A stretch of 64,000 nucleotides of DNA from Raja brachyura (taxonomy: Eukaryota). The stretch is from NCBI GenBank assembly GCA_963514005.1, contig OY740786.1:110732001-110796000 (forward strand), given 5' to 3'. Both the position numbers and the translations under genes were made by a program. This document shows positions 1 to 60,999 of this stretch, in pieces. The stretch's first letter is position 1. The number at the start of each line of letters is the position of its first letter. The notes under the pieces were generated by a model. It saw nothing but the letters and a program-made list of their open reading frames with translations, did not search any database and was not told the DNA's origin.

Positions 1-109
1 ACTAGAACCCAAGAGATTTCTAGTGAGTTCAGTTCCCATGTATTATTATTTTTTTGTCATTGCAGGCATGAACAGATGGAATTGGCGGTCAAAAGCAGAC
101 TGCATAAGC

Positions 110-270
110 TTAACACAGTGGGTCAGACAGTGGGTCTGGCAGCGTAGGCTGCATTTCGGCTCCCAACCCAAAACGGTGCCTATCCATTTCTCCCACAGAT
201 GCTACCTGGCTCTCAGAGTTCCTCCGGTACTTTGTGTTTTGCTCAAGATTCCAGCACCTGCAGTTCGTTA
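110..270. mobile_element. short Penelope-like-derived repeat, decayed inverted copy
   Basis: acccaaaacggtgcctatcc...cagatgctacctgg...gagttcctcc...cagcacctgcagttc matches the family consensus. Confidence 0.55.
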
Positions 271-7837: not shown

Positions 7838-8059
7838 GTGCTGGTTTAAACCGAAGATAGACACAAAAAACTGGAGGAACCCAGCGGGTCAGACAGCATT
7901 CTCTGGAGAAAAGGAATAGGCGACATTTCGGGTCGAGACCTTTAACTGAAGAAGGCCTCAACCAGAAACGCCACCCATTCCATCACAGATCCCGCTGAGT
8001 TACTACAGCATTTTGTGTCTAATTCACTTTAAACCAGCATCTGCAGTTTCTTCCCACAC
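7838..8059. mobile_element. fold-back pair of Penelope-like-derived repeat
   Basis: gctggtttaaacc...gacatttcgggtcgagacc / ctgaagaaggcctcaaccagaaacgcc...tttaaaccagcatctgcag. Confidence 0.7.
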
Positions 8060-15819: not shown

Positions 15820-16005
15820 AAGATAGACACACAAAGCTGGAGAGAAAGAATGGGTGACGTTTCGGGTCGAGACGTTTGTAGAAGGGTCTCGACCCAAAAT
15901 GTCACCTATTCCTTCTATCCAGTGATGCTGCCTGTCCCGCTAAGTTACTCCAGCTTTTTGTGTCTATCTTCGGTTTAAACCAGCATCTGCATTTCCTTCC
16001 TACAC
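15820..16005. mobile_element. fold-back pair of Penelope-like-derived repeat
   Basis: gacgtttcgggtcgagac...agaagggtctcgacccaaaatgtcacct...cagcatctgcatttccttcctacac. Confidence 0.7.
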
Positions 16006-16350
16006 ACTAAAGACATGCCACCGCATATTTATAATGTGCCCCTTCAGATGTTTCAGTTGAGTTTTAAGCTAAAAGGACATGGTTCATTAATTGTTCCTTG
16101 CACCCAATGGTCTGTTTAGAGCTGTATATTTTTAACACCACTTCACCAATGTTTTACTCATGACAACTCCCTCCTTTGCTGCCAAATGGTATCAGTCATG
16201 AACCTGGTTAAGGAAGCCTTCCATTCGAATCTGCCTCGCAGTGGCTGGGTTAAATTTGGTGAGCTATCAAGCATTAGCAAGAGAGAGCAAGAGAGAAGGG
16301 AGAAAACAAAATGGCTGCAAGAGAGGTGTAGGAGGAATGGCAAATGCCCA

Positions 16351-16497
16351 TTTACACCAAAGAGAGACACAAGACGCCGGAGTAACTCAGCGGGACAGGC
16401 AGCATCTCTGGAGATGCTGGCTATCCCGCTGAGTTACTCCAGCATTGGGTGACGTTGGGTTTCCTATTCTCCAGAGATCCAGCATTTTGTGTCTATC
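16351..16497. mobile_element. rearranged palindromic Penelope-like-derived repeat
   Basis: ggagtaactcagcgggacaggcagcatctc-tg-gagatgctggctatcccgctgagttactcc forms a hairpin. Confidence 0.65.
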
Positions 16498-20279: not shown

Positions 20280-20640
20280 TAAGAAGACAAATGTAGGTCC
20301 CTTACAATCAGAGACAGGTGAATTTATAATGGGAAACAAGGAAATGCCAGAACAGTTAAACAAGTACTTTGGTTCTGTTTTCACTAAGGAAGACACAAAC
20401 AATCTCCCATAAATACTAGGCAACCAAGGATCTAGTGGGAGGGAGCAACTGAAGGGAATCCACATTAGTCAGGAAATGGTTAGGTAAACTGTTGGGACTA
20501 AAGGCAGATAAATCCCCAAGGACCTGATCGTCCGCATCCCAGAGTACTCCAGGATGTGGCCCTAGAAATCGTGGATGCATTGGTGATCATTTTTCAATGT
20601 TCTCTCGACTCTGGATCAGTTCCTGTGGACTGGAGGGTAG
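20280..20640 (+). mobile_element. CR1 ORF2 fragment
   Basis: ALEIVDALVIIFQCSLDSGSVPVDWRV. Confidence 0.85.
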
Positions 20641-26289: not shown

Positions 26290-26620
26290 GGGAGAAGGCA
26301 GGAGAATGGGGTTGAGAGGGAAAGATAGATCAGCCAAGATTAAATTGGGGAGTAGATTAGATGGGCCAAATGGCCTAATTCTGCTCCTATGTCTTATGAA
26401 AAAGACCAGGTCAACTCTCCCCATGACCTAGTCAATATTTATCTCTCAAACAACACCAGTAAAAAAGATTTACTGAGCCATTATTTCAGTGATTTGGTGC
26501 TGCATATAAATCAGCTGATATCTTTTCTGCAATATGAACATGATCACATTTCAATTGAAGTTCACTGACTGAAATCACTTCCAACCTCTCTGTCCAGTGT
26601 CATGAAAGGTTTGAAAGGTA
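26290..26620 (+). mobile_element. CR1 tail (26290-26397) followed by DeuSINE-like 3' half, ending about 80 bp from the exon 2 donor
   Basis: gggccaaatggcctaattctgctcctatg; ctctccccatgacctagtcaatatttatctctcaaacaacacc. Confidence 0.5.
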
Positions 26621-26699
26621 TCTTCTAATTTTTCTTTGTGCTCACGGTTCATTACATTTTCCTTATTCCTAGACAAATACTGTAAGTTGCAATACTTAC

Positions 26700-26983
26700 A
26701 AATAATATAGTAGTCTTCATGTTTTCTGAATTCCAGTCCCCAGAGGTTAGGGCTGAATTCCTGAAACTTGATGGTAAACTTGACATCTTGATCTGGCTTG
26801 TTGCAATTGAGTAAAGGTGTGGGGCTGAGCACAGCGTTGCAGTTGTCTGCTTGATCTTTTGACACCATATATAGTTTAAAGTATTCATACTGTCCCGTAA
26901 TCCTGGAGTCCACCTTGGGGCAGATAATATCAAGCTTGTCTCCTATTTGTGGGAACATCACCAATCCTTTACTAGGTAGAAAC
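26700..26983 (-). CDS. efnb2: ephrin-B2 coding exon 2 (ephrin receptor-binding domain)
   Basis: Acceptor ttattttcag, donor gtaagt, 284 nt. Encodes [40 protein letters not shown]...[43 protein letters not shown] is characteristic of EFNB2 and [10 protein letters not shown] matches the B2/B3 G-H loop. Lies within ORF 26575..27048. Confidence 0.96.
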
Positions 26984-28574: not shown

Positions 28575-29480
28575 ACCATATAACCATATAACAATTACAG
28601 CACGGAAACAGGCCTTCTCTGCCCTTCCTGTCCGTGCCGACCATTCATTTTCCCCTAGTCCCATCTACCTGCACTCAGACCATACCCCTCCATTCCCTTC
28701 CCGTCCATATACCTATCCACTTTACTTTTAAATGTTAAAATCGATCCTGCCTCCACCACTTCTGCTGGAAGATCATTCCACACAGCCACCACTCTCTGAG
28801 TAAAGAAGTTCCCCCTCATGTTACCCCTAAACGTCTGTCCCTTAATTCTCATGTCATGCCCTCTTGTTTGAATCTTCCCTACCCTCAATGGGAAAACCTT
28901 ATCCACGTCAACTCTGTCTATCCCTTTCATCATTTTAAAGACCTCAATCAAGTCCCCCCTTAACCTTCTGTGCTCCAAAGAATAAAGACCTAACTTGTTC
29001 AACCTTTCTCTATAACTTAGTTGCTGGAACCCAGGCAACATTCTAGTAAATCTCCTCTGTACTCTCTCTATTTTGTTGACATCCTTCCTATAATTAGGCG
29101 ACCAAAATTGTACACCATACTCCAGAATTGGTCTCACCAATGCCTTGTACAATTTTAACATTTCTTCCCTACTCCTATATTCAATGCTCTGATTTATAAA
29201 GGCCAGCACACCAAAAGCTTTCTTTACCACCCTACCTACATGCGATTCCACCTTCAGGGAACTATGCAGTTATTCCTAGATCCCTCTGTTCCACAGCATT
29301 CCTCAATTCCCTACCATTTACCATGTACATCCTATTTTGATTTATCCTGCCAAGATGTAGCACCTCATACTTATCAGCATTAAACTCCATCTGCCATCTT
29401 TCAGCCCACTCTTCCAAATGGCCCAAATCTCTCTGTAGACTTTGAAAATCCACTTCATTATCCACAGCACCACCTATCTT
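28575..29480 (-). mobile_element. 5'-truncated CR1 LINE, relatively young subfamily
   Basis: 198-aa uninterrupted C-terminal ORF2 (VRPILEYGVQFWSP...FFTQRVVAVWNDLP) plus upstream QRDLGHLEEWAERWQMEFNADK; (accatata)n tail. Confidence 0.92.
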
Positions 29481-34077: not shown

Positions 34078-35234
34078 AGAAACATAGAAACATAGAAATT
34101 AGGTGCAGGAGTAGGCCATTCGGCCCTTCGAGCCTGCACCGCCATTCAATATGATCATGGCTGATCATCCAACTCAGTATCCTGTACCTGCCTTCTCTCC
34201 ATACCCCCTGATCCCTTTAGCCACAAGGGCCACATCTAACTCCCTCTTAAATATAGCCAATGAACTGGCCTCAACTACCTTCTGTGGCAGAGAATTCCAG
34301 AGATTCACCACTCTCTGTTTGAAAAATGGTTTTCTCATCTCGGTCCTAAAAGATTTCCCCCTTATCCTTAAACTGTGACCCCTTGTTCTGGACTTCCCCA
34401 ACATTGGGAACAATCTTCCTGCATCTAGCCTGTCCAACCCCTTAAGAATCAGTCTGGTGATTCCTGGGATGTCAAAACTGTATGCAATACTCCAGGTGTG
34501 GTCTCACCAAGACCCTGTACAACTGCAGTAGAACCTCCCTGTTCCTATAGTCAAATCCTTTTGCTATGAATACCATTCGCTTTCTTCACTGCCTGCTGCA
34601 CCTGCATGCCTACTTTCAATGACTAGTGTACCATGACACCCAGGTCTCGTTGCATCTCCCCTTTTCCTAATCGGCCACCATTCAAATAATAGTCTACTTT
34701 CCTGTTTTTGCCACCAAAATGGATAACCTCACATTTATCCACATTATACTGCATCTGCCATGCATTTGCCCACTCACCCAGCTTATCCAAGTCACCTTGC
34801 AGCCTCCACAGCTAACACTGCCCCCCAGCTTCGTGTCATCCGCAAACTTGGAGATGTTGCATTCAATTCCTTTGTCCAAATCATTAATATATATTGTAAA
34901 TACCTGGGGTCCCAGCACTGAGCCTTGCGGTACCCCACTAGTCACTGCCTGCCATTGTGAAAAGGACCCGTTTACTCCTACTCTTTGCTTCCTGTCTGCC
35001 AGCCAGTTCTCTATCCATATCAATCCTGAACCCCCAATACCATGTGCTTTAAGTTTGCATACTAATCTCTTATGTGGGACCTTGTCGAAAACCTTCTGAA
35101 AGTCCAGATATAACACATCCACTGGTTCTCCCTTATCCACTCTACTAGTTACATCCTCGAAAAAATTTATAAGGTTCATCAGACATGATTTACCTTTCGT
35201 AAATCCACGCTGACTTTGTCCAATGATTTCACCT
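34078..35234 (-). mobile_element. CR1 LINE with internal deletions
   Basis: [35 protein letters not shown]; (tagaaaca)n tail. Confidence 0.92.
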
Positions 35235-35458
35235 GATTTTCTGATTTTCTGATTTTCCCCGAATGAAAGATCTTACCAATATTTCTGCATTTTCCTGGAC
35301 CTTGATTCTTCGGGTCCATTTTCACAATTGAATATAATCTAATGTGAAAAATTCAGGCAATTTTGCCGTTGATACTGATTGGCAAACAAAGTGGAGACTT
35401 CCTCATTTCAATTTGTGCTCGTCCAGGAGACACTAGATGGGAACAGATCCTCTACTAA

Positions 35459-35708
35459 GAGGTAGACAAAAATGCTGGAGAAACTCAGTGGGTGAGGCAG
35501 CATCTATGGAGAGAAGGAATAGGCAAAGTTCTCCTCCTCTCTCCCTTCGATTTTTCCAGCATCTGTAGCTCTTTCTTAAACATTTCATCTACTCCACTGC
35601 GAAATCTCCTCAAGGTATGTCTACTTTGAAGAAGTTCTCCTCCTCTGTCCGAACTTTCGATTTTTGTCTAGCGTCGATTTTTCCAGCATCTGCAGTTCTT
35701 TCTTAAAC
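35459..35708. mobile_element. rearranged Penelope-like-derived repeat
   Basis: gtagacaaaaatgctggagaaactcag... and two copies of cgatttttccagcatctg; flanked by ctacta.gaggt duplication. Confidence 0.55.
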
Positions 35709-38247: not shown

Positions 38248-39451
38248 ATATGTATATGCCAGGTTTACATTGCTCTGTGTTACTGATAACCAGCTGATGA
38301 AGTCATTATACACACATAACATCTTCAAATCACTGGAAATAGTTAGAATGGACCATCAAGATTACATGGATGCACATAGTTCAGCCCTATTGTTTCCTTG
38401 ACAAGTCCACAGTGTTATGTTGTAGAATAATATATCTGATGAAGATAATCAAATAGAGCCTGGGGAACGGTCTATTGATAATCAGTTTGACCTTTGCAGG
38501 AAGGCTGTGGAAAGATTATAATCATTTCTAACTACCCTGTTAAAATATGCGCATTGATCAATTTCAGAAAGTACAAGACTGGTTTTAATATTTATTTTGC
38601 CAAGCCCCCTGTTACAAAGTGAAAACCTTGTGAGCTGCTTCTGACCAAATTCTAGTCAGTAAACTCACAAAAAGTGTTTGAATAAGATTTACTCAGAAGA
38701 GAAAGAATAAATGCTCCAATGTTTTCAGAAATCAAACTGAGTAAAGAAAGCTTTGATGTAAATGAGTTAAGATTCAAGATGAATTCAAGGAGAGGTTGGA
38801 TCATAAATTATGAATAATTTATCCAACAGTTGACAGTGCTTCTCTAGAAATTTACAATCTTAGAGTTTTATGTCTTTAATTTAGTTTAATGTAGAATTAG
38901 AATAAGTACAATCCAAGTATGACCTGATCAAAGGAAGTAATTCCAAGTCTTCTCCTGAAGAAAGCTACTTTCAACATTAAATCAACCAGCAACACTTTAC
39001 TTATAGTCTTGTTAACAAATGCTAATAGTTCCTCTGCTTATTTCATTTTTTCCTTTGGCAAATACGTAATGTCTGATTTTCAGTTTCAGGACCAAAGGAA
39101 AATTTAAGTCTCCACCTCCCTCTGTAATAATAATTTATCAGAAAAATGTTGTTTTTTGGCCTACTGCACTCACTATTTTGATTTTTCTGGAAAATGAGGA
39201 ACACTAAATGATTTTCACATTGGCAAGATGTTTTCTACCTAATTTGGGACAGTAGCAGTAATCAGTAACACTGAGCATTTTAACTTGTTACATTTCAACA
39301 GTAATCACACACCTCTACATTTTAGCATAAGCCTTTCATTTTGTAAACTGTTTATATAAATGGTTCTATGAGTTACACTTATTAAAAGACAGATTAACAG
39401 AATAGTCTAAGCAATGAGGCAAATCGATACACTAACTAACAAAATGGTATT

Positions 39452-39529
39452 GACCCGAAACGTCGCCTATCTCCTTCGCTCCTTAGATGCTGCTGCACCC
39501 GCTGAGTTTCTCCAGCTTTTTGTGTAACC
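39452..39529 (+). mobile_element. Penelope-like-derived repeat with 15-bp TSD
   Basis: aacaaaatggtattg at 39438-39452 and 39530-39544; same subfamily as the copy at 46220-46312. Confidence 0.75.
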
Positions 39530-39666
39530 AACAAAATGGTATTGCTATGTTTCTACTTATGATTGCTTTACTTTCAATTAAGAACTTTTGATGCTCTCAG
39601 ACACTAACTGTGGTTGAGGCCTAAAATAGGTGGCTTTTTAGGTATCAAAAAAGTTCCAACTTAGAT

Positions 39667-39798
39667 GTTTAGAAAGGAACTGCAAATGCTGGTTTAAACC
39701 GAAGATAGACACTAAAAGCTGGAGTAACTCAACGGGTCAGACAGCATCTCTGGAGAAAAGGGATAGGTGACGTTTCGGGTCGAGACCCTTCTTCAGAC
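39667..39798 (-). mobile_element. Penelope-like-derived repeat with intact hammerhead core
   Basis: Near-consensus copy. Confidence 0.75.
39769..39796 (-). ncRNA. minimal hammerhead ribozyme motif, intact core, sense to efnb2 intron 1
   Basis: Reverse complement reads CTGAAGAAGGGTCTCGACCCGAAACGTC. Confidence 0.65.
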
Positions 39799-42367
39799 AG
39801 TGAATTTTGTTAATTGAGTGTGATTACGTTTCTGTAGTTGTTTTCCTAGTGTCTCTGACTTTGAGGAGGGAAAGAAATAGCCATCTTTGCCCCATTGTCC
39901 ACTTTGCATGAATGATCAATGGTATTTCTAATCTACAAACCCCCTTCCGAGTGGCACAACGTTAACTCATGCTGCTGATAAACTCATTAGCAACCTGTAA
40001 ATCAAGGGTCGATCAACATCTTGCCCCAATTACCCTTCAAGGCTCACGGATGAATATTAGATTCTGGAGAGTTACAGGGCTGCATTCCAGAGGAGCAGGC
40101 CAAGTGGGAATGAGCATGGAGAAACAATTAATATTATTGGGAGCAAAACAAATAGTTATGGTCTTTTTTCATACTTCCACAGTAGCTAGGAAACAAAATT
40201 CCCAACAGACTCTCATTAAGTTTCTCACAAAGTGAAGTTTTTAAAACCAGTGTATCTTGATATGAATAAATTATGTAATTGATTGCATATTCCATTCTAT
40301 AACCCCCACCCCTTCCACAATGCTAGCTCATCGGCTGAAAAACTCATTAGCAACCAATAAAACAATTGTCACTGCTCTGTAATTACTGGGACTGCCATCG
40401 TCCCAAAACCCAGTCGTCTTTGCCTTTTTTTCTTTTCCAAAGCCTCGGTGTTGAGCAAAGAGGCAACTTTTAAGCAAAAATCAAAAAGGAGCTTTTCACC
40501 TCTGTTAGGATTTTGCACATTTTCCCATCCTTAAAATCTTTTTGACGGTACTGAATTTAAATATATTTTAACAGATTGTACATCTAACAGTTGATACTTC
40601 ATTTAGCCTTTCATTTCCTGAGACAGCTGGATGTACTTATTAGGATTATGGGGGGAAAAGGATTGGGTTGAATACTAAAGATCAGTTCAGATGTGTTGGG
40701 AGGGAAGCCGTACTGGGGGAACGCCGTTATCAGAGTAGCCAGTGGACAATGTGGTGTTTATCTTAGCCTTTCTCGTGGAGGGATAGACTAAAGTCTGTGC
40801 CTGAAAGATGGTTACATCAAAAGCACTATGTTTTCCTTTCAGATAACCTCAGACCTGCCAATTCTCCCATATTCCGTTGCAACTCAGCATGTTACTCTCT
40901 GTGGCATAAATAGATGAAAGACACAATCTCAATGTGAACTTAAGCCAACAGAATTGCTACTGCTGGGCCGGAGGAGAAATTAAAAGTCTCTTGCCTAACC
41001 AATGGTACAAGCTAGGGCTTTGGGCGTACGGGTGTACACTAAAGCAGCAAATTAAATCTACCTTTTTCATATTACGCACAATGAATGAACAAGAACTGAG
41101 CAGCTTTTCTTCACCGTCCTCCAACCCAAGCCAGAAATACATGCCCTTTATACATCCTAATCCTAACCTGACGTTACAGAGCAAAATGCTCATCAGCTCT
41201 GAACACTGCTTCCCTCCTTTCCCTTTCAAATCTCAATGATAGATGTGTCAGTTTGGGCATGAAAAAAATCTATATGTTGCCTTGGCAACAACAGTTCCCA
41301 CTTATATTTTGCTCACAAAATGGTTCCACCACCCTACTATTTATCAGAAAGACATAATTTTAGCTAGATTTTGATTTCCATATTCTGTCCCATGCTGGTT
41401 TCAGCTGTAGCACAAACAAATTATTGTCAATAACTTGAGGTTGATATCTTTTTAAATACTGTACTGGGACTTCCCAAAAATCTCTACCCAATGTTTGAAG
41501 GATGTTTCTCGGAAGAAAATACTTGAATACTTCTGCAAGAAAACATATAATGTGTCCATACCTACAAATATCCACATGATTCCCTTCATCGTGTATCTGT
41601 ACACTACAAATGGCTCGATTGTAATCATGTTCTGTCTCTCCACTGACTGGGTAGTACGCAACAAATGCTTTTCACTGTACCTCGCTATACGTGACACTAA
41701 ACAAAACTAAACTAATCATTAATCTAGGAAAGCTAAATGAAAAATGTAACACCTTAAACATGTTTTTCTGATCAGCAACAACTGTTTTATTTTATACCCA
41801 GTATTTTGAATTTTGGACATTTGATTTCTTTTTGGCAATGTTTATCGACCTTAATCCAATACAGAGAGAGAAGGGGAGCAAAAAATCTGCAAGAAGAGCA
41901 AATTATTACTGCCTATGGTAGTGGTTAAGAAAACTGGTTTGACAAGTCTTCTACTCTACAAGGTTTATACATAAATATTTTGCCTTAAAATATAAAAGTT
42001 CAACAAAATGTTTACAACACACATAGTTGATCATGATACCTTATGATGAAAAGAGTCAACTGTCTTTACCAACGTCTCTCCTGCACCCTTACTACTCATG
42101 CACAAAATTATGCAACATCAAAAGGCAGTTGTTGCCAAACCTAACCAACAATGAGTTTACTGAAGTTGCATTTTTCTTTGTTCTTTTCTCCTTTGTCAGT
42201 TAAAACATAATTATATGATGTTAAGATGTTCTGCACCCATGCAAGTACTGTCTGCATTCCTTCAATATTACATAATTTGAATCAATACTTTAATACATAA
42301 ATTATATGTAAACCTCTTAAGTAAAAAGCTGATCAACCTGTTCTCCCTCTTAACTGGGCCAATGGCA

Positions 42368-42443: not shown

Positions 42444-42561
42444 GAATTGTTACTTAGAATTGTTTGTTTTGAAGGGATACTTCACATAAAAATGTCTATT
42501 TTATACATCCCAATCATTAGTAAAAGGAACTTGCCCCTACCAGCCTGACTTAGCGCACAAT

Positions 42562-42758
42562 GTGCAGGAAGGAACTGCAGATGCTGGTTTACACCGAACA
42601 TAGACACAAAGTGCTGGAGGAACTCAGCAGGTCAGGCAGCATCTCTGGAGAAAAGGAATAGGTACGCTTCTGTCAAGGGTGTTGACCCAAAACGACACCT
42701 ATTTCTCCAGAAATGCTGCCTGACCTGCTGAGTTACTGCAGCATTTTGTGTCTGTCTT
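42562..42758. mobile_element. fold-back pair of Penelope-like-derived repeat
   Basis: gacacaaagtgctggaggaactcagcaggtcaggcagcatctctggagaaa ... tttctccagaaatgctgcctgacctgctgagttactgcagcattttgtgtc. Confidence 0.7.
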
Positions 42759-43857: not shown

Positions 43858-45365
43858 CAGTGTTTGGGACAAAGACCCATCATTTATTTATTTGCCTCTG
43901 TACTCTACAATTTGAGATAGAAAAAAATCACATGTGATTAAAGTGCACATTGTCAGAATTTATTAAAGGGTATTTTTATACATTTTGGTTTTTACCATGT
44001 AGAAATTACAGCTGTGTCCATACATCGTCCCCCCCCATTTCAGGGCACCATAATGTTTGCGACACATGGCTTCACAGGTGTTTGTAATTGCTCAGGTTGC
44101 TCTCAGCACCTAGTCTTTCCATCACCTTTGGAAACTTTTATTGCTGTTTATCAACATGAGGAACAAAGTTGTGCCAATGAAAGTCAAAGTAGTATTATGA
44201 GACTGAGAAAAAAGAATAAAACTGCTAGAGGCATCAGCCAACCCTTAGGCTTACCAAAATCAACTGTTTGGAACATCATTAAGATGGAAGAGAGCACTGG
44301 TGAGCTTACTAATCGCAAAGGGACTGGCAGGTCAAGGAAGACCTCCACAGCTGATGACAGAGGAATTCTCTCTATAATAAAGAGAAATCCCCAAACACCT
44401 GTCCAACAGATCAGAAACACTCTTCAGGAGTGGATTTGTCAATGACCACTGTCCGCAGAAGACTTCATGAACAGAAATACAGAGGCTGCACTGCAAGATG
44501 CAAACCACTGGTTAGCCACAAAAATAGATGGCCTGGTTATAGTTTGCCACAAAGTACTGAAAAGAGCAACCACAGTTCTGGCAATAGGTCTTGTGGACAG
44601 ATGAGACAAAGATGAACTTATATCAGAGTGATGGCAAGTGCAAAGTATGGAGGAGAGAAGGAACTGCCCAATATCCAAAGCACACCATCTCTTCTGTGAA
44701 ACACGGTGGTGGGGGTGTTATGGCCTGGGCATCTATGGCTGCTGAAGGTACTGACTCACTTATCTTCATTGATGATACAACTGCTGATGGTAGTAGCATA
44801 ATGAATTCTTTATAGACACATCCTATCTGCTCAAATTCCTTCCTTCAAACAAATGCCTCAAAACTCATTGGCCGGCAATTCATTCTACAGTAAGACAATG
44901 ATCCCAAACATACTGCTAAAGCAACAAAGGAGTTTTTCAAAGCTAAAAAATGGTCAATTCGTGAGTGGCCAAGTCAATCGGCCATCCTGAACCCAATTGA
45001 GCATGCCTTTTATATGCTGGAGAGAAGACTGAAGGGACCTAGCCCCCAAAACAAGCATAAGCTAAAGATGGCTGCAATACAGGCCTGGCAGAGCATCACC
45101 AGAAAAGACACCCAGCAACTGGTGATGTCCATGAATCGCAGACCAAGCAGTTTCAAGCAAAGGATACTAAATATACTAAACATGACTACTTCCATTTACA
45201 TGACATTGCTGTTCCCCTAACATTATGGTGCCCTGAAATGGGGGACTATGTATAAACACTGCTGTAATTTCTACATGGTGAAACCAAAATGTATAGAAAT
45301 GGCCTTTATTAAAATCTGACAATGTGCACTTTAATCACATGTGATTCTTTCTGTTACAAATCTCA
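43858..45365 (+). mobile_element. Tc1-family DNA transposon (IR/DR type) with dead transposase
   Basis: TA|CAGTG left end. About 200-bp inverted repeats (cagggcaccataatgtt / aacattatggtgccctg; atcacatgtgattaaagtgcacattgtcaga and its complement). Frameshifted transposase with WTDETK, VKHGGGGVMAW, Q*DNDPKH and WPSQS..LNPIEH (DD34E-type motifs). Right end truncated by a SINE head at ~45366-45407. Confidence 0.9.
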
Positions 45366-46219
45366 TCAAACCTGGGTCTCTGGCGCTGTGAAGCAGTAAC
45401 TGTACCGAGTACCTCTCAGTTTCTCATTTAAAATTGTTTTAAGGGTCACTAAGGAGGGGAGTTTAAATGACTCACAAACTCTGGGTGAAAAAAAATTACT
45501 TTGTCCCTGCTTTAAATGGGTATACCGTTATTTTTAAAGTTTCTAATAATTCTATGTACTCAGCACAACAAATAAATCTTCTCCATATTTAACATGTCAA
45601 GTATCTTTGAGCCCTTTTATGTATCAATGAAGGTTTGGTCTTACTCTTCTAAACTCCACTAGATACCAAGCCTAAAGAGATGTGATAATTTACCTTCAAA
45701 AGAGCGGTATAATATTACCACACCTCTTTACATCACTGATCTACACTGATTAACAAGGACTCATTGGTAAATATGATTTGAATATGTTATGATACATTAG
45801 ATGTTTCATTTAATGTTTTGTACAGATGAGTATGTTACAAGCATATCAAGCGATTCGATATTTGCATCATCATTTTGCACAATATCATTCCCTGGCTCAT
45901 TTATGTTCACAACTGGCATAATGCACAAATTGAACATTCCTGTTTTTCAATTCCAATGTTATCAAAGTGTTTCTTGCCCAGTGTATTCTCTGTACCTTTA
46001 AGCAACTTATTTATGGATCGACATAACTAGGTTTGATAAAGAGAAGAGATTGGGTATAACAGTCATTAGCATTCAGGAACTGGAACTCTTATTTAATTAG
46101 GACTGCAAAGAAAGGACTTTCTCAAGTAACAAGAAACATGTGCGCAATATATTTTCAAACCATTTTTTATCTCAATGTATCCCAAACCACCTGATCTTCA
46201 TGTTGTTTTACAATAATAT

Positions 46220-46312
46220 GTCTGAAGAAGGGTCTCGACCCGAAACGTCGCCTATCTCCTTCACTCCTTAGATGCTGCTGCACCCGCTGAGTTTCTCCAG
46301 CTTTTTGTGTAA
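46220..46312 (+). mobile_element. Penelope-like-derived repeat with 36-bp flanking duplication
   Basis: cacctgatcttcatgttgttttacaataatatgtct at 46188-46223 and 46313-46348. Confidence 0.8.
46222..46249 (+). ncRNA. minimal hammerhead ribozyme motif (Penelope-type), intact core
   Basis: CTGAAGA-A-GGGTC-TC-GACCC-GAAAC-GTC: C3-A9 core, extra A, 5-bp stem II, G12-A14, palindromic ACGU in place of stem III, GUC cleavage triplet. Confidence 0.65.
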
Positions 46313-47036
46313 CACCTGATCTTCATGTTGTTTTACAATAATATGTCTCCTAAACATCACAATAGTTGCTAGTGATATTTTTAACATCTTCATTCATAAA
46401 AAGGCTACCTATAATTTGTCGAGGCAGGATGTAATGACATACTCGTGAGCTTTCTTTGAATGGAGAGCCTGATAATCTGATCTTTGCTCACATCACACAT
46501 GCTTTTACTCACTATGGCTAATAAATAGCACTCAGAAGGGGAACCCTGGTGCATTCTCCTCCCAGTCCAGAGGCACAGAGCATACTGTAGCACCCCATCG
46601 TTCTACCTGTGTCCTCTAGTGCGTTTACTTAGACAACCCACCATTGAGCCCAATAATGCAAATATATATTATTTTGCAGAGTAGGAAGGTGTTAATACTG
46701 AACACGCAACTGGTAGGAATGAATCACCTGAGCTATTTGAGGTAGCTGACTGTAAATTGAGAATATGTTAATTTACCAAAACTAAAACACTATTTTACTC
46801 TGGCATTGATAAGCCGTGTCAGAGCACAACACTTTCTCATCAAGTTACGATAGTGAATGCAAAATGCTTCACCAGCACAGATGCTAATGTGCCTACAAAC
46901 CACAAATGGATTTGCTTGTCCTCTAAAATCTGGTCCCTTTGAAAAGTGGCATGCTTCTTAATGAAGCAAAATTCACTGCCTAGACGTTCTGGTTCTGTGA
47001 ACAGAAAGCTGTCTGTTGGCTCTGCACTCGTGTTGA

Positions 47037-48198: not shown

Positions 48199-49713
48199 AT
48201 AAGGTCGGAGGTGATAGGAGCAGAATTAGGCCATTCGGCCCATCAAGTCTACTCCACCATTCAATCATGGCTGATCTATCTCTCCCTACGAACCCTATTC
48301 TTCTGCCTTTTCCCCATAACCCCTGACATCCGGAAATTATAAAGAATCTTGTGATGGGCTCTTTTAACCAACTGGCGAATGGTTTAAAAAAAAAGGAACT
48401 GACTGATTTGTTGAACCAATGGTTATTGGAACATGGATACCTTTGCATTATAACCATAAAACAGAGCTCCTAATGACAGTTGTATGGGAAGTGGACTGTA
48501 ACGTAATCAAAGGATATGAGGAACAGAGAAATTAGATTAGGATGAATGGCCCCAGGTGAAAACATGCACAGTGGCACTGGGGCAAGTGATCTCCATATGC
48601 ATATGGTTCTATAATCATTACAGCAGTAGGGTATGTTTCAGAACATTTACATAACTGGATGGAATTGAGACTTGCATCTTTTACTTTTAAGCAGAGGTGA
48701 AAGACAGATTAAAAATGTCAAACGTCCCTGTTGTTTTGGATGGACATCATAGTAATGGGTGTTTGTACACCTGTAAATCAATTAGTCTGACTGGAAAATG
48801 TTAATTGGTTAAAAATGTTCCAGCTATCCTTGATGATTTTGCCCAAATCTTGAGACTCTGCTGCACTGGAGAATTATAAATAAGGAAACAGCAGCAATCA
48901 GATGGCAGTAAATGTGCATAGGCTCTTTGTTTAAGTACAACCTTGAGACAGTACAAGTTCTCAAGAATTAGTATGTCCGCACCCTAACTGCTGTGACAAT
49001 TGTGAATCAATTCAATTTACAAGGAAATAGGGCTGATGTGAATGAATAGAACTTGAGGGGGGAATCACTGCCAATTTACCATTAACCATCATGAGTGAAA
49101 TTTTAAAAGCAATTCACGTAAAGAAAAATGTTTCTACTATTTTGTAAACAAATACTCATCTGATCAGATCACGGACTGAAAGCGTAAATTGTGCTTTCAT
49201 CCTTTTCAGGTGCAGGAGAGTAATCGAGATAATGATTTTCACCATTACCTTAGGGATGGGCCTTGGTAGACCCCAAAAATGAATTTTAAAAACTTTTGGG
49301 TTTTTTCCAATCATGAATTTATCAAAATGATCTATGCTTGCTGCCTTCAGTGCATTATAGAAGCACTTCACCGCAAGCGAGCAAAACTATTCCTCACTCT
49401 CCTCACCTGAGAGTCAACGGGCAATGAAGCGCTTCTTGAGCAATGTGCCAATGTAAAACAATGTGTCTATGAGCAGGATGCTCATTAATCTCAATGCTGC
49501 ATGGATATTCTCTGGTGAGAGTTCATTGCATCAACCCAATGAGCTGTAGAAAATAATCAGTTCCTTAAAATGCATGAAAACACTGTGCAACACATCGCGG
49601 AGCAGACTGGGCAGATAAGACGATCCACCCTTGCCACACAGGTTAAAAGGCCCAGTAAACAGATGCACAACATGAGGAAAATATAACAACTACAAAACAA
49701 AGTTTATATCTCG

Positions 49714-49902
49714 TTTAAGAAGCAACTGCAGATGCTGGAAAATCAAAGGTAGACAAAAATGCTGGAGAAACTTGGCGGGTGAGGCAGCAGCTATGGAGCG
49801 AAGGAAATAGGCAACGTTTCGACCCAAAACGTTGCCTATTTCCTTCGCGCCATAGATGCTGCCTCACCCGCTGAGTTTCTCCAGCATTTTTGTCTACCTT
49901 CA
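49714..49902. mobile_element. near-perfect fold-back Penelope-like-derived repeat
   Basis: About 74-bp arms at 49746-49819 and 49827-49900; tatatctc TSD at 49705-49712 and 49908-49915. Confidence 0.8.
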
Positions 49903-50462
49903 AGGTCTATATCTCCTTGGGTTTGCTAGTTTTGGTGAGATATTTCTTGTAAATGTCATTAGACTTTCCAACTCCTGCCATCGACATTATTCTCACCCTC
50001 ATTAATAAGTCAATTTACGAAAGGAAATTAGAAAACTTTATTTCAAAACTCCTAAATATTCCCTCTTATAGCAGTGTCCCGGAGGTTACTTCTCAATTCA
50101 ATGAAATGCTGGGCCAAAGCTGTAGGAGTTAATAAGTATCACCTGCATAAACTAAATAAGATAACTGGTTAACCAACATTATATTTGATCAACTTTGTAC
50201 AACTCACTTCTCAAAGCCTCCAACTTGAATGTGAGAATATTTCCAATGTGCAAACAGACATAATACTATGATTCTGATCATCCAATTCAGATTGGGAATC
50301 TGTTCCAAACCATTTTGCACAAGTCTGGCAATAATTACAACAGAATCAACCCCACCCCACCAACCTCTGGAAAATATAGTTTTAGAAGCTCTAGAAAATA
50401 TCAATAAACCACAATGTGGGGAAAAAGGCACAGAGTCAGCTACTGACTGACCACACTCTCGT

Positions 50463-50589
50463 GTTAAAGAAGGAACTGCAGATGCTGGAGAATCGAGGGT
50501 TACACAAAAGGCTGGAGAAACTCAGCGGGTGCAGCAGCATCTAAGGAGCGAAGGAGATAGGCAACATTTCGGGTCGAGACCCTTCTTCA
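50463..50589 (-). mobile_element. Penelope-like-derived repeat
   Basis: Family consensus; actctc.tgtt flanking duplication. Confidence 0.7.
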
Positions 50590-51539
50590 AATACTCTCTT
50601 GTTGGGTGTGGGCTTTTTGAAGCATCTGAAGAGTGTAGGACTATTTGGAGAGATCTGTATGTCATCGCTGGAGTGAGCTAAAAGCTCCCATTCACCCACG
50701 CTTCTACCTTATGACTGAAATGTCTCCTTGTACTTCTACAAGGAGGTTTCTGTTTTATTTATGTAATTACTGGTGCCAGATTTTCAATTCAGAAATAATT
50801 CTTGACTAGAGATGTTAGAAAATGTAAACCCTGGCAAAACACTAGTTTAATTTGGGGTTTTCACTTTGTAGACTGATGTAAACGGTGTCATCTATACTTA
50901 ACGTCAATGTGTCTCCCGTAACATATCTGAGATTACGGAAAATGGGCAATATTCAGACAGGATATACAACGAATATTTAACAACAAAATACCAACAGGCT
51001 AAATTTGGAATATTTTGCAAACTCAATGATCAAAACGATTTGCTTACATGTCGCTAATACAAAAACAAAACACTGCTTGCAAATATTTGTGTGGGTTGAT
51101 TTTCTAAAAAGGGGGGAAATGGATAACATGATTAGTTCACTGCAATCACCAGTTTGATGCGCTGGGCCTGCGTGGCTCGTTTGGGATAAACATTTTTTAA
51201 TCGGCAATGTTCTGAATCAAATCAAAAGCTCCACTTCCCACAGAATGCCCCAGCACCTGAAGACGGAGAGCTAAAAAAGTATTGGCTGATTCGAGCGATG
51301 TCTGCACCAGTTATTGACCGGTGTTGCCCTTTAACCACCGGTTAGAATTACACCACTCGTCTTTCCGGCTGCCTCTAAATCGGCGGCGGCTGGAATGACC
51401 TTGGGGGGGGGGAAATGAGGAACGATGCACTTTTACATTCCCGTCGCAACTTTATTTCCTGGTAACTGACGGGAATGCCAGTGCAAGGCACTGGAAGGAG
51501 AGTAGCCGGAGCAAGAGTGCGGGGGAGCAGCGTAGAGTG

Positions 51540-54875: not shown

Positions 54876-55065
54876 GCCAAGACTCACTCTGGTCCTTCTC
54901 GCACCTCCATTGTTATTCCATCGGATTAAGGCTGATCGCAGAGTTTATTTGCAGCCTGCCCAAAAGCACAGGTAACCAAATAAAGCCACACAAATGAGCT
55001 TTTCCCTGCAAACCCGCACACCATTTCATTTGCCCTTGATAATTGGAACCTCTGCATTACTGTTT

Positions 55066-55320
55066 GATAGACATAAAATGCTGGAAAAACTCAGCGGGAC
55101 ACCTCTGGGGAGAAGGAATGGGTGACGTTTCGGGTCGAGACCCATCTTCAGACTGACAGTCAGGGGAGAGGGGAACGAGGTGATATAGACAATATAGAGA
55201 GATATAGAACGAAGATATGCCAAAAATAACAGTCTGAAGAAGGGTGTCGACCCGACTCTTTCCTTCTATCCAGAGATGCTATCTGTCCCGCTGAGTTACT
55301 CTAGCATTCTGTGTCCACCT
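55066..55320. mobile_element. inverted pair of Penelope-like-derived repeat upstream of the efnb2 promoter
   Basis: Minus-strand arm has an intact hammerhead core plus about 75 bp of additional element sequence; plus-strand arm begins cagtctgaagaagggtgtcgacccga. Confidence 0.7.
55124..55151 (-). ncRNA. minimal hammerhead ribozyme motif, intact core, upstream of efnb2 promoter
   Basis: Reverse complement reads CTGAAGATGGGTCTCGACCCGAAACGTC (the extra base after A9 is U). Confidence 0.6.
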
Positions 55321-58300
55321 TTAACCAAGTGACTCGATGGTAAAGCAGCAACTTTCTACATGTTACTGTTTGATTTGCATGAGAGGAGATGCAAGATGGT
55401 GGGAGGTGGGAATGCCGCTCGGCCACTGCACACTGTATCACTCCCATGAACTGGTAAAGTTTGCGCTTCACAATGTGGGTTCCCCGTAATTCCCCGCGAA
55501 TTGTTTTCCAGTGGAGCAGTTACCTTACGCTGCATTGGGGGATGGGGCGGGGAATGAGACGGGATTAACATGAGTCAAGTCAAGAACGAAACCTACATTT
55601 GAAAAAACCATGGGGTAATTAATCGTGTAGCTAACGGGAAGTGCATCGTATTGCTTTCTTTACTGACTTGCTGCAATTCCGTGCAATTATGCTGCATGGA
55701 AGGAATGACACGCCTGGGCTGGGCACCAAATGCAATGATGTAAGGTAGGGCAAGCGAGGCGCCAGCCAGGATCCGACCGACCGACCTGCGCCTCTTCCAT
55801 GGATCCACAGCGCCCACTAGAGACTTTATTTGAATATTTCATAACATGTTGGCGAAACGAATCCTCCCACAGTCCTAGTCCCACCGATTTCAGTCCGGAG
55901 ACAGGCTCGAGGCGAATCCACTGCACGGTGAACGTTTTTTATTTCGATTTAATGTTAATTATTAAAATACTTCGAAAACCGGGTTGCTTTGTTCATTTAG
56001 TTTATTTCAAATCCATTGAGATGATTTACAACTGCAACTGCAGACACTCATTTGAACTAAACATCCGGGAAAAATGTTCAAACTTTGAGCCCTTCAAGGG
56101 AACGGGATACTATTTACATTGTTCAACTAACACGCTGTTTGCTTAAGCAGCAACGCTGGTTTCGGAACGTGTTTGGTCGTTTACCGTGCGCCGCTCAAAT
56201 ATGCAACCATAATGAATCAAAGACCCCGCTTAAATAGTTGATCATTTGATCATTTTTTGCCGTTAACTCCTGGCACAAACCCATTCAATGCAGTTAGGCT
56301 TTTTCCAAATCTATACTAAGACGTTGTATTTTGGAAATAGGAAACAAAAAAAAGCAAAAATGACTGAAAACATGCGTTTCCAACGAGGAATTGAAGTATA
56401 CAATTGGTGGAAATTGCATTTCTACATTTCAGTGCAGCCAGTGGGGAAATCAAGTGTGAATCGCGTTAGACAAAAGGCCCCACAGAGTACATGTTCTTTA
56501 TGGATGGTCTATATTTAAATATGGGGTAAGGACTTCGAACGTGCTAAAAACGAGGTTCGTTTTATTAATCAAATATTCGAATTGCCAGACACGATCTAAT
56601 TTACAGTTAGTCTCGGGGACCAGATTGATCGGAATCCCGGGCTCCTAACGCAATTTACTTTAAATGTACTTTAAATGGGGGTGATTACATTTCAATTGTG
56701 AACGTGGGTTGCAGCATTAAATAAGAAAACTCTAATATAATCAATGCAGGTGATTGAATCATCCAGCACGGTGACAAGTTCTGGGATGGTAACGCGTCCT
56801 TTTTTGTTTCGGCGATACTTATGATTTGAAAACGTTACCAAGTTAAAAACAATTCTCCATTAAAAAGCAATTACCAATTATGACATAAATAGTTTTCAAT
56901 TCTTCATTTATATGGATAGTATATAGATCTAAATAATGAATTGAGGGTATGATGTTATGGTGTATCTTGAGTGATCGGTTTCGCCATTCAATAGATTGGA
57001 TCAGCCAAATATCCTAAATGGGCACATATTTATATTGATAGTCTTAAACGCAAAGACCCCTCGATAGACATGAATTTGTGTTCTATCTCGTTATCGCTCC
57101 ATCCGTTCTCTATTTCGCGTGTCGGTTAACTCAATTTTCATAAAGTCAAAGTAGCAACTGAGTTGCAACTACATTCTGCTGGATATTTGGCTGCACAGTC
57201 GAAAGATGTACACACATCCAAGTTTGCATTTTGACACAAAGTAGATGCATCAAGATCAATGATCGGTTTATTTCGTGTTTGACGGAAACTACAATTGCAT
57301 GTTATTAGTGATATGCTGTTAGTGCTAACCTGGGCGTTTCCTTGCATTGCCCACCTATCTGGGAATAAATGAGTTAAACAGGAATCGTCACGCGTGTCTC
57401 CCAACAACAGCAAGACATTAGAAATGATCGTAAACCCTTTCAACATCACCCCTAACGACGACAGCTGTCGACACGTTTACTGCAAAATTTTATGTGGCAA
57501 TTTACACGATGCTCATCAGGTCGGTGAACATTTGGTAATTAATAACATCGATGGGCGGAGTGGAAATCAGCGCTGAGAAGCGTTAAAGTTCTTCAGTTTC
57601 GCGACTGGAACCTAAAGTAAGTCGAACCGACCGAAGATCAGCTGTTGAGTTTATAGGTACCCCGTGAACTCGCAGCGTCCCAGTCCAACGCATGTGCGAA
57701 TCTTTGTTTAAAAAATTAGTCTCTGGTGAATTTCCTGTTGTTTCCCGGTTTGCGTTACCTGCGGACTGTAGACTGCAACATGTGAGAATTGCCCTTCCGT
57801 ATTGAAAGCGTAGATTAGAATGAGAGTGAGCGGCGGGGAATGAGTGTTTGCATATTCACATAAGCTGATGTTTAAATATATCTATAGCGCGGTCACTATA
57901 TTTTCAAGCTAGCACCAAATAGCTGAAAACCCAAGTGATTTTTCCCGCGGCGGACCTGCAGACTTTGATCTGTTTTCTGGATATAGTTTTAATTTTAACC
58001 TCAAACCTACAGGAAATGGTGGATTTGCTAACTGTCTGATCTTTCCCTTTTTGCCGTGACCCAGACAACGGGAATAATTGGCAGGACTGCGAAGCAAAGA
58101 AATAGGAAATATCAACACTGCCCCCGGACTACTCCACGATCAACAGGAATGGTATCACTTACACATTGCACAGGATCCAGAAAACTATTTCAAAGCGAAT
58201 TCACAAGCCCATTAAATCGACATTGTCTTATAATGTTCCTCAATGCATTCGTTATGCGAAGTGTAGTATTATAAATTATTATTTATCACCTGTCAGTATA

Positions 58301-58422
58301 ACACCAGACCTTTCAAGACCGTTGGATAGTGTGTTATTGGTAGGGTATTACGTTTCGAATTAAACGTGCCCTTAGAGTTCAACATCGAAAACCTAAAGAA
58401 ATGGAGACTCGAGTTTGTACCC

Positions 58423-58506
58423 CTTAAATATTAATCACACTTTTCCTTAAATATATGAATTGTGAAAAATATATATATTTAAGGAAGCGTGTGATTAATA
58501 TTTAAG
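58423..58506. repeat. AT-rich inverted repeat (34-bp arms, 2 mismatches, 16-nt loop)
   Basis: cttaaatattaatcacacttttccttaaatatat ... atatatttaaggaagcgtgtgattaatatttaag. Confidence 0.85.
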
Positions 58507-60999
58507 TCGTCCCAAAGTTGCCACAAGATTTCTCATCGCGACTTATTGCAATGTTTTTCGGCGGCAATTTTCATTTTCCTTAAAATTCCGCTACAAGTTA
58601 TAGAAATGGAACACTTAATTTTAAATGTGGGTACGCTGGCGTATTGTTATATTTTAATTCTGATAAATAATTACAAATGTAGGCTTTCATTTTAAAAGTA
58701 GAATCTGGTGGTTGTTAATAACTTGCACGTCTATTAATAAAGGTAGTGTTTAATAATGTATTTTAGTATATATCGCTGCTTCTAAATATTTGATAAATCA
58801 GTTCATGTGGTGAATCAAATGGGAATACAATACACACTTCTTTAAAGTTGCAGCAATTAAGTCCGGCAAGAGGCGTCCTCAAGAAGAAACTGCATACGGA
58901 CCCCGCGTCTCCATCCACAACGCGAAATGATTGTTGACAGTCAACTAGACATGAACACAGCAGAAGTCTGTTGCTGACCAAATGGAATATTTCTGAGCAA
59001 TTCTTCTTCCCTCATGCAGCGTGGAAGAAATTCAAACCTCGTCCTAATTTGGAAATTCACGTTCATGAACATTAAAAAAATAAGCTAGCTGGATAACGCC
59101 AGTTGAATGAACACGCGGTTTTATTTGTTAAACCTGTTTATAAATCTTGCACTTGTTTGATTAAAATTGTATTATCTGGTGTCATTATTTAACTGTGATT
59201 CCTGCACAGACTGCATTGTCGTTGCTGTCTGCATGTGGGAGGGAGAACAGGCAACATGATCTAATTCGCAGTGGGGCTGAAATGAGTTCAAGTGTTCATT
59301 CAAGGACAGGTGAGAGGAGTCTCTGCAAAACTGCTTTGGAAAGCTGCGTGGGTAGATTCCCGCTTCAATGAACCCAGATAAACGACGATAAGGAGAAATT
59401 GATTTCAAAGCTAACCCGGAAATCCTGGCATTTACACTTCCAAGTTTTTAGCTTCTGCGTTTTTATATAAAAAATAAAAATTCGCTTTCGTGTTTTCTTA
59501 CGAAAGACTCGATAATTCACAAAAATGCACAAAAGTACACAATTGCATACCAAGGATGATTTTATTGTAATAATTTTAAGAGGACGGTTTCTATAGTTTG
59601 GTGGAATGCATCAAAGAGGGCGAGTGTAATCCGACTGAAGAACAGACGGCAGACGGGCGGTTAATCCAACTGAAAGGTTCCACGTTATGCCACTAGCATT
59701 TCAAAGCATTACAATGTCTTGGAGACTTTCTCAAGCAGAATTCTATTACATCCCATTCGATGTGTTTTAACTGTTGACGTTGTTTCTTCTAGCATTCGTT
59801 TTTGAGATTGGTTTTGAACATTTCATTACGTATGTAATTTCGAGTACAGCGGGATCGTTTCCCCCGAAGTTTGAATCAGCTACCTGAGATGTGAATCTGC
59901 AATTTGGAAAGTTGAGATGAAGGGCGCATAGCCACTGGTAGGTACCCTGCAGCGAGACGCTGCCAGCTGGGGTTTGGTGGAGAATTCCACCCGAGGTCAC
60001 TGTAAGGAACAATGCAAGCCCCGGCTTCTGATAGCACCATAACCCGCGAAACCGTGAAAGCTGTTTATCACTCCAAGATGAACTCGTTCCTATGTAACTT
60101 TATCCAATGGAATTGCTGGACGGTTGTATGTATGCCAATTTATTGTTTGGTCAGCTATTTTCAACATCAATCCTGTTAATTCAAAATTATGTCCCACCTA
60201 TAGTTTTAATGGCTAGGGAATCGTTGGAACAAAACCACAAGACCTCTCTATTTTTCCACCCCCCAAAAATAAAATAGCAAATATTCACAGCCTCATAAAA
60301 GCAGTACTATACCAATATATCTATACGAGCGGAGCTCATATATCTTTCTTTCATTGAACGATGAAAAGAAATGTGCCTCGATCGGTTTGCATTTATTGAT
60401 GTGTTGGTAACAGTATGTATCACACATGCGATGATACCATCATCCTATATGATGGTATCATCGCATTTGATACGTAATCATTTGTCTGGTGTATGGATCT
60501 TTATCTATTTTCTATTTTACAAATATTTAATAAACAAACAGAATATGCAGACAGTATCTGCTGAGTTACATTCAATGAAGTAAAGATGTTGATGTCATGA
60601 TTGACACATCTTTTTTTTCCCGGAATGCCAGTGCCAATGAAATGATTTGTTGTAATAACTTCGCCATATCGAACCAAATTATCTTTACGGTTGCTTCAGA
60701 CTTCTGTATTCTCGCCGAAATAAACCCTTTTCGCGTGGTGCGTTCAAACATGTGGCCCAGCCAAGCGTTTGCCGTATCTTTGTCTCCCCCTAGTGTGAAA
60801 TCATGCCTTGAAATTTTAAACAGACACGCTGGTCATCAGTTTTTATTTTCATTCGCTTCACTTATTCAACTGGTGCATATTCTTAGGCTGTCACTGATAT
60901 GATTTCAGATCGAAATCAGGAACAACTGTCAATGGACAACGGGAAGACACCAGAGATAACCTAGGTAGGAAGGTGGGATGGAGACAAAAGGCCGGAGTA

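Follow-up and report, generated by a model that had tools for sequence, protein, structure and literature searches.

A short repeat built around a minimal hammerhead ribozyme motif recurs along a 64,000-nucleotide stretch of the Raja brachyura genome (GenBank assembly GCA_963514005.1, contig OY740786.1, positions 110,732,001 to 110,796,000 of the forward strand), the whole of which is referred to below as the window. The locus raises two questions: whether the repeat is a separate non-autonomous, retrozyme-like element mobilised by a Penelope enzyme, as proposed in a preliminary description made from the letters of the window, or a part of a larger retrotransposon, and whether its hammerhead cuts RNA in the living animal. 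Cutting by minimal hammerheads in vivo, and the origin of pLTRs, tails and inverted pairs, are left open in PMC11167929 and in the available parts of PMC4209133 and PMC8557442 (sources available in part are marked as such below).

Element positions were numbered from the C of CTGAAGA (+1, window position 46222), the preceding base being -1 and the predicted cut falling between +28 and +29. The core CTGAAGA-A-GGGTCTCGACCC-GAAAC-GTC was located at 46222-46249 on the plus strand in the window sequence, within an insertion with the following features.

46188..46223, plus strand, left copy of a 36-bp target-site duplication
46220..46313, plus strand, focal insertion, a solo, tail-less pLTR of the young subfamily (element -2..+92)
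46220..46221, plus strand, 5′ strand of the 2-bp stem I (partner 46250-46251)
46222..46249, plus strand, minimal type I hammerhead motif (from the sequence and the feature list of PMC4209133, in part)
46222-46228, plus strand, hammerhead C3-A9, followed by an extra A at 46229
46230-46233/46238-46241, plus strand, hammerhead stem II with a 4-nt loop
46242-46245, plus strand, hammerhead G12-A15.1, with the ACGT palindrome at 46245-46248 and C17 at 46249
between 46249 and 46250, plus strand, predicted hammerhead cut
46269..46313, plus strand, 5′ part of a nested hairpin downstream, drawn from folds and ending at the first 3′-end site (+90..96)
46313..46348, plus strand, right copy of the 36-bp target-site duplication

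Save for one subfamily position (+42), the focal copy agrees with the pLTR of L106, a full-length element described below. Four nucleotides of microhomology with the target at its 5′ junction (46220-46223) include the 5′ strand of stem I. Judging from the folds, the 3′-end counts and PMC11167929, the region 46269..46313 would be where RT recognises the RNA and starts synthesis.

Stem II is best drawn as 4 bp (GGGT/ACCC) with a loop of 4 nt; the 5-bp stem with a 2-nt loop given in the preliminary description had to be redrawn, as RNA geometry does not permit such a stem. Stem I consists of 2 bp, the first being T:G or T:A in 160 copies and the second G:C in 145, with A:C at the third position in 133 copies. 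The identification of the core as a hammerhead held up, with all features of minimal PLE hammerheads listed in PMC4209133 (in part) present: the CUGANGA...GAAA...UH core, an extra base after A9, G10.1-C11.1 and a palindromic 15.1-16.1. All of them are kept in 94 of the 183 copies that cover +1..+28 in the 791-kb sample described below. The likeness to the minimal hammerheads of that source (in part) comprises the type I core, the extra base between A9 and 10.1, G10.1-C11.1, the palindromic 15.2-16.2 and the lack of a stem III loop, as well as presence in both pLTRs and occurrence for the most part as single, dispersed motifs belonging to truncated PLEs. The helices are shorter than in the S. 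mansoni families (stem II of 7-8 bp and stem I of 4-5 bp, against 4 and 2 bp here), while a helix I of 2 bp is shared with D. virilis (PMC4209133, in part). An Rfam scan of the window gave no match to a hammerhead family at E up to 1; it gave 13 sub-threshold hairpin matches, some of them on head-to-head pairs of the repeat.

A degenerate 25-mer with up to 3 mismatches matched the window seven times, and none of 100 shuffles gave any match. With a single copy as the query, 29 matches were obtained by blastn and 30 by nhmmer, and an iterated profile gave 36 matches covering 3,448 bases, or 5.4% of the window. The earlier figure of about 27 copies was thus right as to abundance and a slight undercount as to number. 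The three copies named as intact in the preliminary description (46222 on the plus strand, 39796 and 55151 on the minus strand) are exactly those in which core, ACGT palindrome and stem II are all preserved, the remaining 33 of the 36 being degenerate or partial. The limits given there for the repeat are too short, as the unit exceeds 91 bp: its optional tail reaches about +129, and many copies extend 5′ into a 3′ UTR and a GIY-YIG ORF. The copies in the window, besides the focal one, include the following.

7839..8057, both strands, head-to-head pair of the older subfamily
15837..16005, both strands, head-to-head pair of the older subfamily
16330..16451, both strands, head-to-head pair of 3′ halves without the hammerhead, giving sub-threshold Rfam hairpin matches
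35444..35653, both strands, truncated minus-strand copy beside a plus-strand piece of the ORF start (35588-35653)
39442..39533, plus strand, young-subfamily copy, 5′-truncated within stem II, with a 15-bp target duplication
39666..39800, minus strand, older-subfamily copy with tail and an intact core at 39769-39796
42561..42758, both strands, head-to-head pair of the older subfamily with a tail on one arm
49712..49899, both strands, head-to-head pair with its junction near the stem III palindrome and a tail on one arm
50462..50591, minus strand, young-subfamily copy with tail and a mutated core
55052..55323, both strands, head-to-head pair of the older subfamily, the minus arm with an intact core at 55124-55151

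The minus arm of the last pair has about 75 bases of the element 3′ UTR upstream. As stated in the preliminary description, no autonomous partner lies in the window: the family ORF is absent (no tblastn match with the 967-aa RT-EN frame described below), and blastn of the element body against the window returned two short pieces only. Tandem arrays with a complete hammerhead in each unit were not found in the window.

In the 2.7-Gb genome, the exact 28-mer occurred 50,608 times (reversed control, 0), and a 35-mer specific to the youngest subfamily occurred 53,498 times. The genomes counted in PMC4209133 (in part) held 2,000-9,000 copies, in contrast to at least 50,608 exact copies here. A profile search found 355 copies in a 791-kb sample, the tiles of which were mostly picked around young copies, so that the number is not extrapolated to the genome. 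The family is young, as the best-scoring endonuclease copies are 98-99% identical and the mean divergence of the main cluster is 2%, and more than 50,000 near-identical young copies permit the starts and stops of RT to be mapped to the single base. A pattern search for related loci among metagenome contigs gave 128 matches, of which none was confirmed. Contigs assembled from transcript runs, several of them probably DNA, showed a steep drop in depth from the pLTR toward the 5′ ORF; this is expected from 5′ truncation and was therefore not counted as evidence of expression.

In two of the first ten genomic matches, the motif is preceded by a coding region for GIY-YIG and a UTR rich in pyrimidines. 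Full-length elements ending in the repeat were then counted among 38 long loci, of which two (L106 and L332) are full-length, with their frames broken. The former was taken as the reference.

G000:C5:3865930-3870092, minus strand, L106, full-length pLTR-ORF-pLTR with 196-bp repeats that are 99% alike

In L106, the repeat lies on both sides of a 3.6-kb ORF (ATG at +164, one frameshift), and the minimal hammerhead is present in both pLTRs. The first ATG overlaps a splice-donor-like AAG/GTATGC (L106 oriented 3230-3242, element about +156..+168); ahead of the hammerhead stand a pyrimidine tract and a CAG, and the sample contained no spliced genomic copy. The ORF is about 1,190 aa; none of the 38 long loci has it wholly intact, the longest open frame being 1,167 aa. 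An open frame of 967 aa in L107 matched RVT_1 at E 1.4e-4 and GIY-YIG at E 1.1e-3, neither match reaching the Pfam cut-off, and contains a DKG motif, a YIDD active site, a C-x4-C-x2-C linker and the CxxC/His/His residues of the endonuclease. For the RT-EN protein, 1,520 homologues were found; those nearest to it among the named ones, at 63-69%, come from whale shark, bamboo shark, zebra shark, devil ray and stingray. About 26 kb to the left of the window lies a copy that is 5′-truncated and inverted and has an RT-EN frame open over 811 aa (L091). Partial tandems were seen as direct repeats in L106 and L332 and as inverted upstream copies in L091, L095, L096 and L104. The suspected link to a Penelope RT/GIY-YIG enzyme is confirmed in that the same sequence flanks the RT and GIY-YIG ORF of a full-length element, and the repeat is almost certainly the pLTR (minimal hammerhead motif, with or without a 35-nt tail) of a young Penelope-like retrotransposon whose ORF codes for RT and GIY-YIG.

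The element resembles the Neptune clade (Arkhipova 2006, via PMC8557442, in part) in having a single ORF with RT followed by a C-terminal GIY-YIG domain, and also in the CX2-5CxxC linker, the DKG motif, the partial tandems, the inverted 5′-truncated copies and a 30-40-bp tail on one end (PMC8557442, in part); compared with that clade, the ORF here has a long low-complexity N-terminal insert. The linker, zinc-finger-like and placed between RT and the endonuclease, defines the Neptune and Nematis PLEs, CCHH residues in the endonuclease going with it in Neptune (PMC8557442, in part), and only Neptune and Poseidon PLEs are reported from vertebrates in the available part of bioRxiv 10.64898/2026.07.22.740005. 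On sequence grounds the element is probably of Neptune type, the choice of Neptune over Nematis being made from the linker and the host range. This kind of element, a Penelope-like element with minimal hammerhead pLTRs, is already known; the repeat family may already be named in Repbase or Dfam. A literature search that fell short of most subscription papers yielded no description of the repeat family or of end-mapping of the kind reported below, and one supplement of PMC4209133 (in part) contained no shark or skate term. The identification gives a very abundant repeat its parent element and is by itself of modest interest.

The proposal of a separate non-autonomous, retrozyme-like element does not agree with these results, as the repeat is both the 5′ and the 3′ pLTR of full-length L106. 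For comparison of variants, 82 short copies and 89 copies linked to UTR or ORF were used, after removal of 27 of 198 candidates that were poorly covered or lacked the start. G42A was present in 16 of 82 short and 10 of 89 long copies, T81C in 9 of 82 and 10 of 89, and the A90 deletion in 6 of 82 and 3 of 89; the two groups differed only at +1/+2, the junction itself. The short copies thus look like products of the same masters as the long ones, although a comparison of this size has low power against a recent self-propagating lineage. In addition, 32 of 110 young copies run at least 43 bases upstream into the UTR or ORF of the element, and most copies read through the predicted cut site, unlike what spread through cleaved, retrozyme-like RNA would give; cleaved or circular RNA is therefore not the usual template.

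An independent retrozyme that spreads through self-cleaved circular RNA and borrows the Penelope enzyme would account for the very high number of short units and for tandem arrays that begin at the cut site (see below), and animal retrozymes have been proposed to derive from pLTRs (bioRxiv 10.64898/2026.07.22.740005, in part). Like the non-LTR retrozymes of animals (PMC7229834 and bioRxiv 10.64898/2026.07.22.740005, both in part), the repeat has a type I hammerhead, a short non-coding unit and a link to PLEs. Those elements, however, form tandem units of 150-450 bp with canonical type I hammerheads and circular RNAs, whereas the unit here, with its minimal hammerhead, occurs scattered or in head-to-head pairs; its sequence is that of the pLTR of the autonomous element, and nearly all copies read across the cut. 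The arrays here repeat the part after the cut, in units that do not contain the hammerhead core. Tandem units with complete hammerheads, a canonical loop 1-loop 2 hammerhead (stem I here has 2 bp and stem III is minimal) and a separate non-coding lineage were all absent, the last judged by the lack of short-only variants (82 vs 89 copies, at low power). We regard the independent retrozyme as largely refuted and very unlikely.

With the repeat taken as a pLTR, the ends of its copies were mapped in 110 young copies selected by the internal 35-mer from the first 3.9 Mb of contig C1, four of which are local duplicates. Besides the 32 that extend at least 43 bases upstream, 59 start at -5..+3, 3 at -12..-6 and 16 at +4..+38. 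The pile-up at -5..+3 is at the upstream edge of the hammerhead and not at the cut, indicating that most templates were uncut. Cleaved RNA as the main template was ruled out, as exactly one of the 110 copies starts at +29. The 3′ ends fell at +90..96 in 63 copies and at +127..131 in 36, both sites directly following a TAAC-like motif, and the segment between them is the PLE tail. Among 67 head-to-head pairs the tail was present on exactly one arm in 64, on neither in 2 and on both in 1, whereas independent choice would put it on one arm in about half of the pairs. Of 48 solo short copies, 22 have a target duplication of 8-18 bp; the control, 294 mismatched flank pairs, gave 8. From the one-arm tails and the target duplications, we infer staggered nicks with one start site used per strand. 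A tail on one end was already described (PMC8557442 and PMC3846280, both in part).

A comparable arrangement is known from PAc, the Poseidon PLE of the green anole, in which two internal RT start sites bound the tail in vitro, both strands are cut and extended, and uncut RNA is the main template, the hammerhead upstream of the start sites being protein-assisted (PMC11167929). The position of the hammerhead relative to the start sites is the same here, and the copy ends suggest uncut RNA as the main template here as well. PAc differs in belonging to another clade and in that its ORF begins inside the hammerhead, whereas the first ATG here is at +164; there was no strand difference in its start site in vitro, in contrast to the 64 of 67 pairs here that show one site on each arm; and no RNA ends were found at its cut, unlike the small class of copies starting at +29 described below (PMC11167929).

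The short copies are likely run-off cDNAs that extend from the internal RT start sites to the probably capped 5′ end of the RNA. The base preceding A(-3), which is C in the element, was G at 2,039, A at 1,075 and T at 627 loci genome-wide, against an expected 935/1,403/1,403 at 40% GC; for control truncations within the ORF, G preceded in 18 of 101 (20 expected). The G excess is inflated, because an inverted partner can supply the G, as it could at 12 of 30 sampled G loci (at 5 of the 12, one composite repeat); scaled to the 18 of 30 solo loci, the G/T ratio is about 1.9 against 0.67 expected, roughly a 3-fold excess. A duplication fixed the junction in 5 of 30 G loci, and the G lay outside the duplication in 4 of these 5. 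The sequence YCAGT at A(-3) is one that we take to resemble an initiator. An untemplated G is a described signature of the cap in L1 and SVA insertions (PMC3287187), and the Penelope pLTR of D. virilis has an internal Inr/DPE promoter (PMC2377424, in part). We therefore lean towards run-off to a capped start at A(-3). Of the 38 long loci, the two that are full-length have their 5′ ends farther upstream than -3 (about -66 and -29), and for these either read-through RNA or a switch into the 3′ pLTR is needed.

The ends at -5..+3 could instead mark the fall-off of RT at the edge of a folded or protein-bound ribozyme, or the end of an intron, with no capped start there. The pyrimidine tract and the CAG at -4..-2, found in all subfamilies seen, would suit an intron end, as would the mapping of an intron end of D. 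virilis to helix I (PMC4209133, in part), and the full-length copies begin upstream of -3. A spliced RNA, however, predicts a common upstream exon before -1, where target sequence is found instead; the stop comes after RT has copied the entire motif; and neither fall-off nor an intron end accounts for the site-specific excess of G. We consider this alternative rather improbable. Splicing into the CAG ahead of the motif was also tried as the source of the short copies and was rejected, no common upstream exon being found.

Solo pLTRs might also propagate themselves, as a SINE-like partner copied in trans by means of a putative internal promoter and the RT start sites. The fixed start and end points of the copies and the constancy of the -3..+28 block in all well-covered subfamily majorities agree with this, and for a rotifer PLE the pLTR sequences alone sufficed for mobilisation in trans (PMC3846280, in part). 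Short-only variants, on the other hand, were absent from the 82 short copies compared with the 89 long ones, a comparison of low power in so young a family, and we think it improbable that the solo copies form a lineage of this kind. The best explanation of the whole, and in our judgement a probable one, is that the repeat is the pLTR of a young PLE and that its short copies arise by run-off.

Under run-off, transcription by Pol II would start at A(-3) within the initiator-like YCAGT, making the hammerhead the first 31 nt of the RNA. The element protein, probably as a dimer, would nick both target strands about 13 bp apart and prime cDNA at +94 on one strand and at +129 on the other. RT would then pass through the uncut hammerhead to the cap, often adding one C opposite it, and the cDNA would be joined by microhomology to the target, giving a solo copy, or to another cDNA, giving a head-to-head pair. 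Long copies would result when priming takes place in the 3′ pLTR or when RT, having reached the RNA 5′ end, switches to the 3′ pLTR. A small share of the RNA would probably be cut after GUC, as a dimer or with help from protein, and would give rise to copies and tandem arrays starting at +29.

Whether the hammerhead takes part as a ribozyme was approached through its conservation and through the copies starting at +29. Across seven clusters, the majority rows differ at 3 of 32 core positions, in small truncated clusters only, against 18 of 61 positions downstream (Fisher p 0.036). The -3..+28 block is identical in all well-covered subfamily majorities, and every subfamily keeps the catalytic positions. 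Compensatory changes in stem II were not seen among the subfamilies, the stems being invariant in their majorities; one-sided changes occur as U:G/U:A in stem I and as 21 U:G in stem II, double changes number 3 among about 235 copies, and the one variable position of stem I retains pairing. With no compensatory change in stem II, the conservation of the core could equally reflect use as a promoter or as a protein-binding sequence. The predicted stability of the hammerhead region is about that of shuffled sequences (z 0.13, 0.08 and 0.92; z -1.5 for the unit -3..+130), and a dimer folded with stems II and III has -12.7 kcal/mol against -19.7 for the free cofold minimum. The hammerhead fold is thus not the predicted lowest-energy fold of either monomer or dimer. 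A result on dimers of minimal hammerheads (Lunse et al. 2017) is cited in the review PMC6765202 (in part).

Starts at +29 outnumbered those at +26 by 283 to 108 when two non-templated upstream bases were required, and those at +31 by 375 to 230 when one upstream purine was required. True ends made up 16 of 22, 21 of 30, 23 of 30 and 10 of 20 sampled loci, and after this classing the excess at +29 was about 2.7-fold and 2.5-fold over the two neighbouring positions, a modest excess based on two control positions, in a class that makes up less than 1% of young copies. Tandem arrays of the +29..+88/90 piece were found at three separate loci (L231, L238 and L309), and at L231 the inverted partner and every unit begin at +29. 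No clustered places were seen among the control matches listed (100 of the 108 at +26 and 100 of the 230 at +31). Both the excess and the arrays are well accounted for if RT reached a physical end of the RNA and then primed again. Stalling of RT at the folded motif, GGCC microhomology, or amplification of one junction at the DNA level are possible alternatives, and on these sequence data we hold the case for and against an in vivo cleavage footprint of the predicted ribozyme to be evenly balanced.

If the class were an artefact of stalling or microhomology, the motif could be no longer catalytic and kept as a promoter or protein-binding sequence, which touches the ribozyme step only and is compatible with the pLTR identity. 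The 2-bp stem I and the lack of covariation in stem II fit such a loss, minimal hammerheads without help have low or no activity (PMC4209133, in part), and the hammerhead of PAc needed protein for cleavage, gave no RNA-seq ends at the cut and was dispensable for insertion (PMC11167929). Against it stand the invariance of the catalytic positions while 18 of 61 downstream positions vary, the excess and the arrays at exactly the predicted base, and the pairing kept at the variable position of stem I. A loss of catalysis seems to us somewhat unlikely, though a serious possibility.

Should the start at -3 and the +29 class both be borne out, the transcription start, the use of one priming site per strand and cleavage in vivo could be tested directly, and the prevalence of minimal hammerheads as lone motifs would be explained. 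The joint reading, with a capped RNA headed by the hammerhead, an RT dimer using one site per strand, run-off at the cap, and a few hundred insertions and several arrays from cut RNA, is put forward tentatively and is on balance doubtful in all its parts together. Were it true, the copy ends would be an in vivo fossil record of the Penelope life cycle, the run-off would resemble the strong-stop product of retroviruses and the tandem arrays would be telomerase-like, and there would be genomic evidence of cleavage by a minimal PLE hammerhead in the germline of a living animal.

Several further observations concern the copies and the window. A larger repeat carries a head-to-head pair as cargo: the composite of the pair and the same downstream flank was found at five of the 30 sampled loci, in distant places of C1 (L198, L205, L211, L217 and L218). 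A second hot spot of 5′ ends lies within the ORF at about -984 and accounts for at least 8 of 101 ORF truncations (L035, L037, L043, L044, L051, L057, L121, L131 and others); it may reflect a second start, a structural feature or a sublineage of shorter elements. Two long copies stand tail to tail at L150 (G000:C1:1532495-1532653), with about 21 target bases between them and the tail in one only, and at L180 (G000:C1:3050293-3057576) a head-to-head pair with its flanks is present three times at a spacing of about 3.5 kb, as a local tandem duplication. Extra short pieces of the element occur at some 5′ junctions (L128, L166 and L117), as if RT had restarted or jumped before joining to the target.

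Sub-threshold Rfam microRNA matches in the window fell at 49766-49879, in a head-to-head pair of the repeat, and at 58420-58509, in an unrelated hairpin. An open frame at 43942-44445 on the plus strand had no Pfam match at 1e-3 and presumably corresponds to the N-terminus of a Tc1-type transposase, which it resembles. LINE reverse-transcriptase fragments, which we take to be CR1-like, are located at 20616-21122, 28655-29269 and 34694-35272, all on the minus strand, the third matching RVT_1 at E 1.1e-19. An exon of an ephrin gene, presumably of B type from its sequence likeness, is present at 26575-27069 on the minus strand (Pfam Ephrin, E 1.3e-32), and the repeats upstream of it on its strand, the focal copy included, probably lie in the first intron of that gene, the focal copy being antisense to it.
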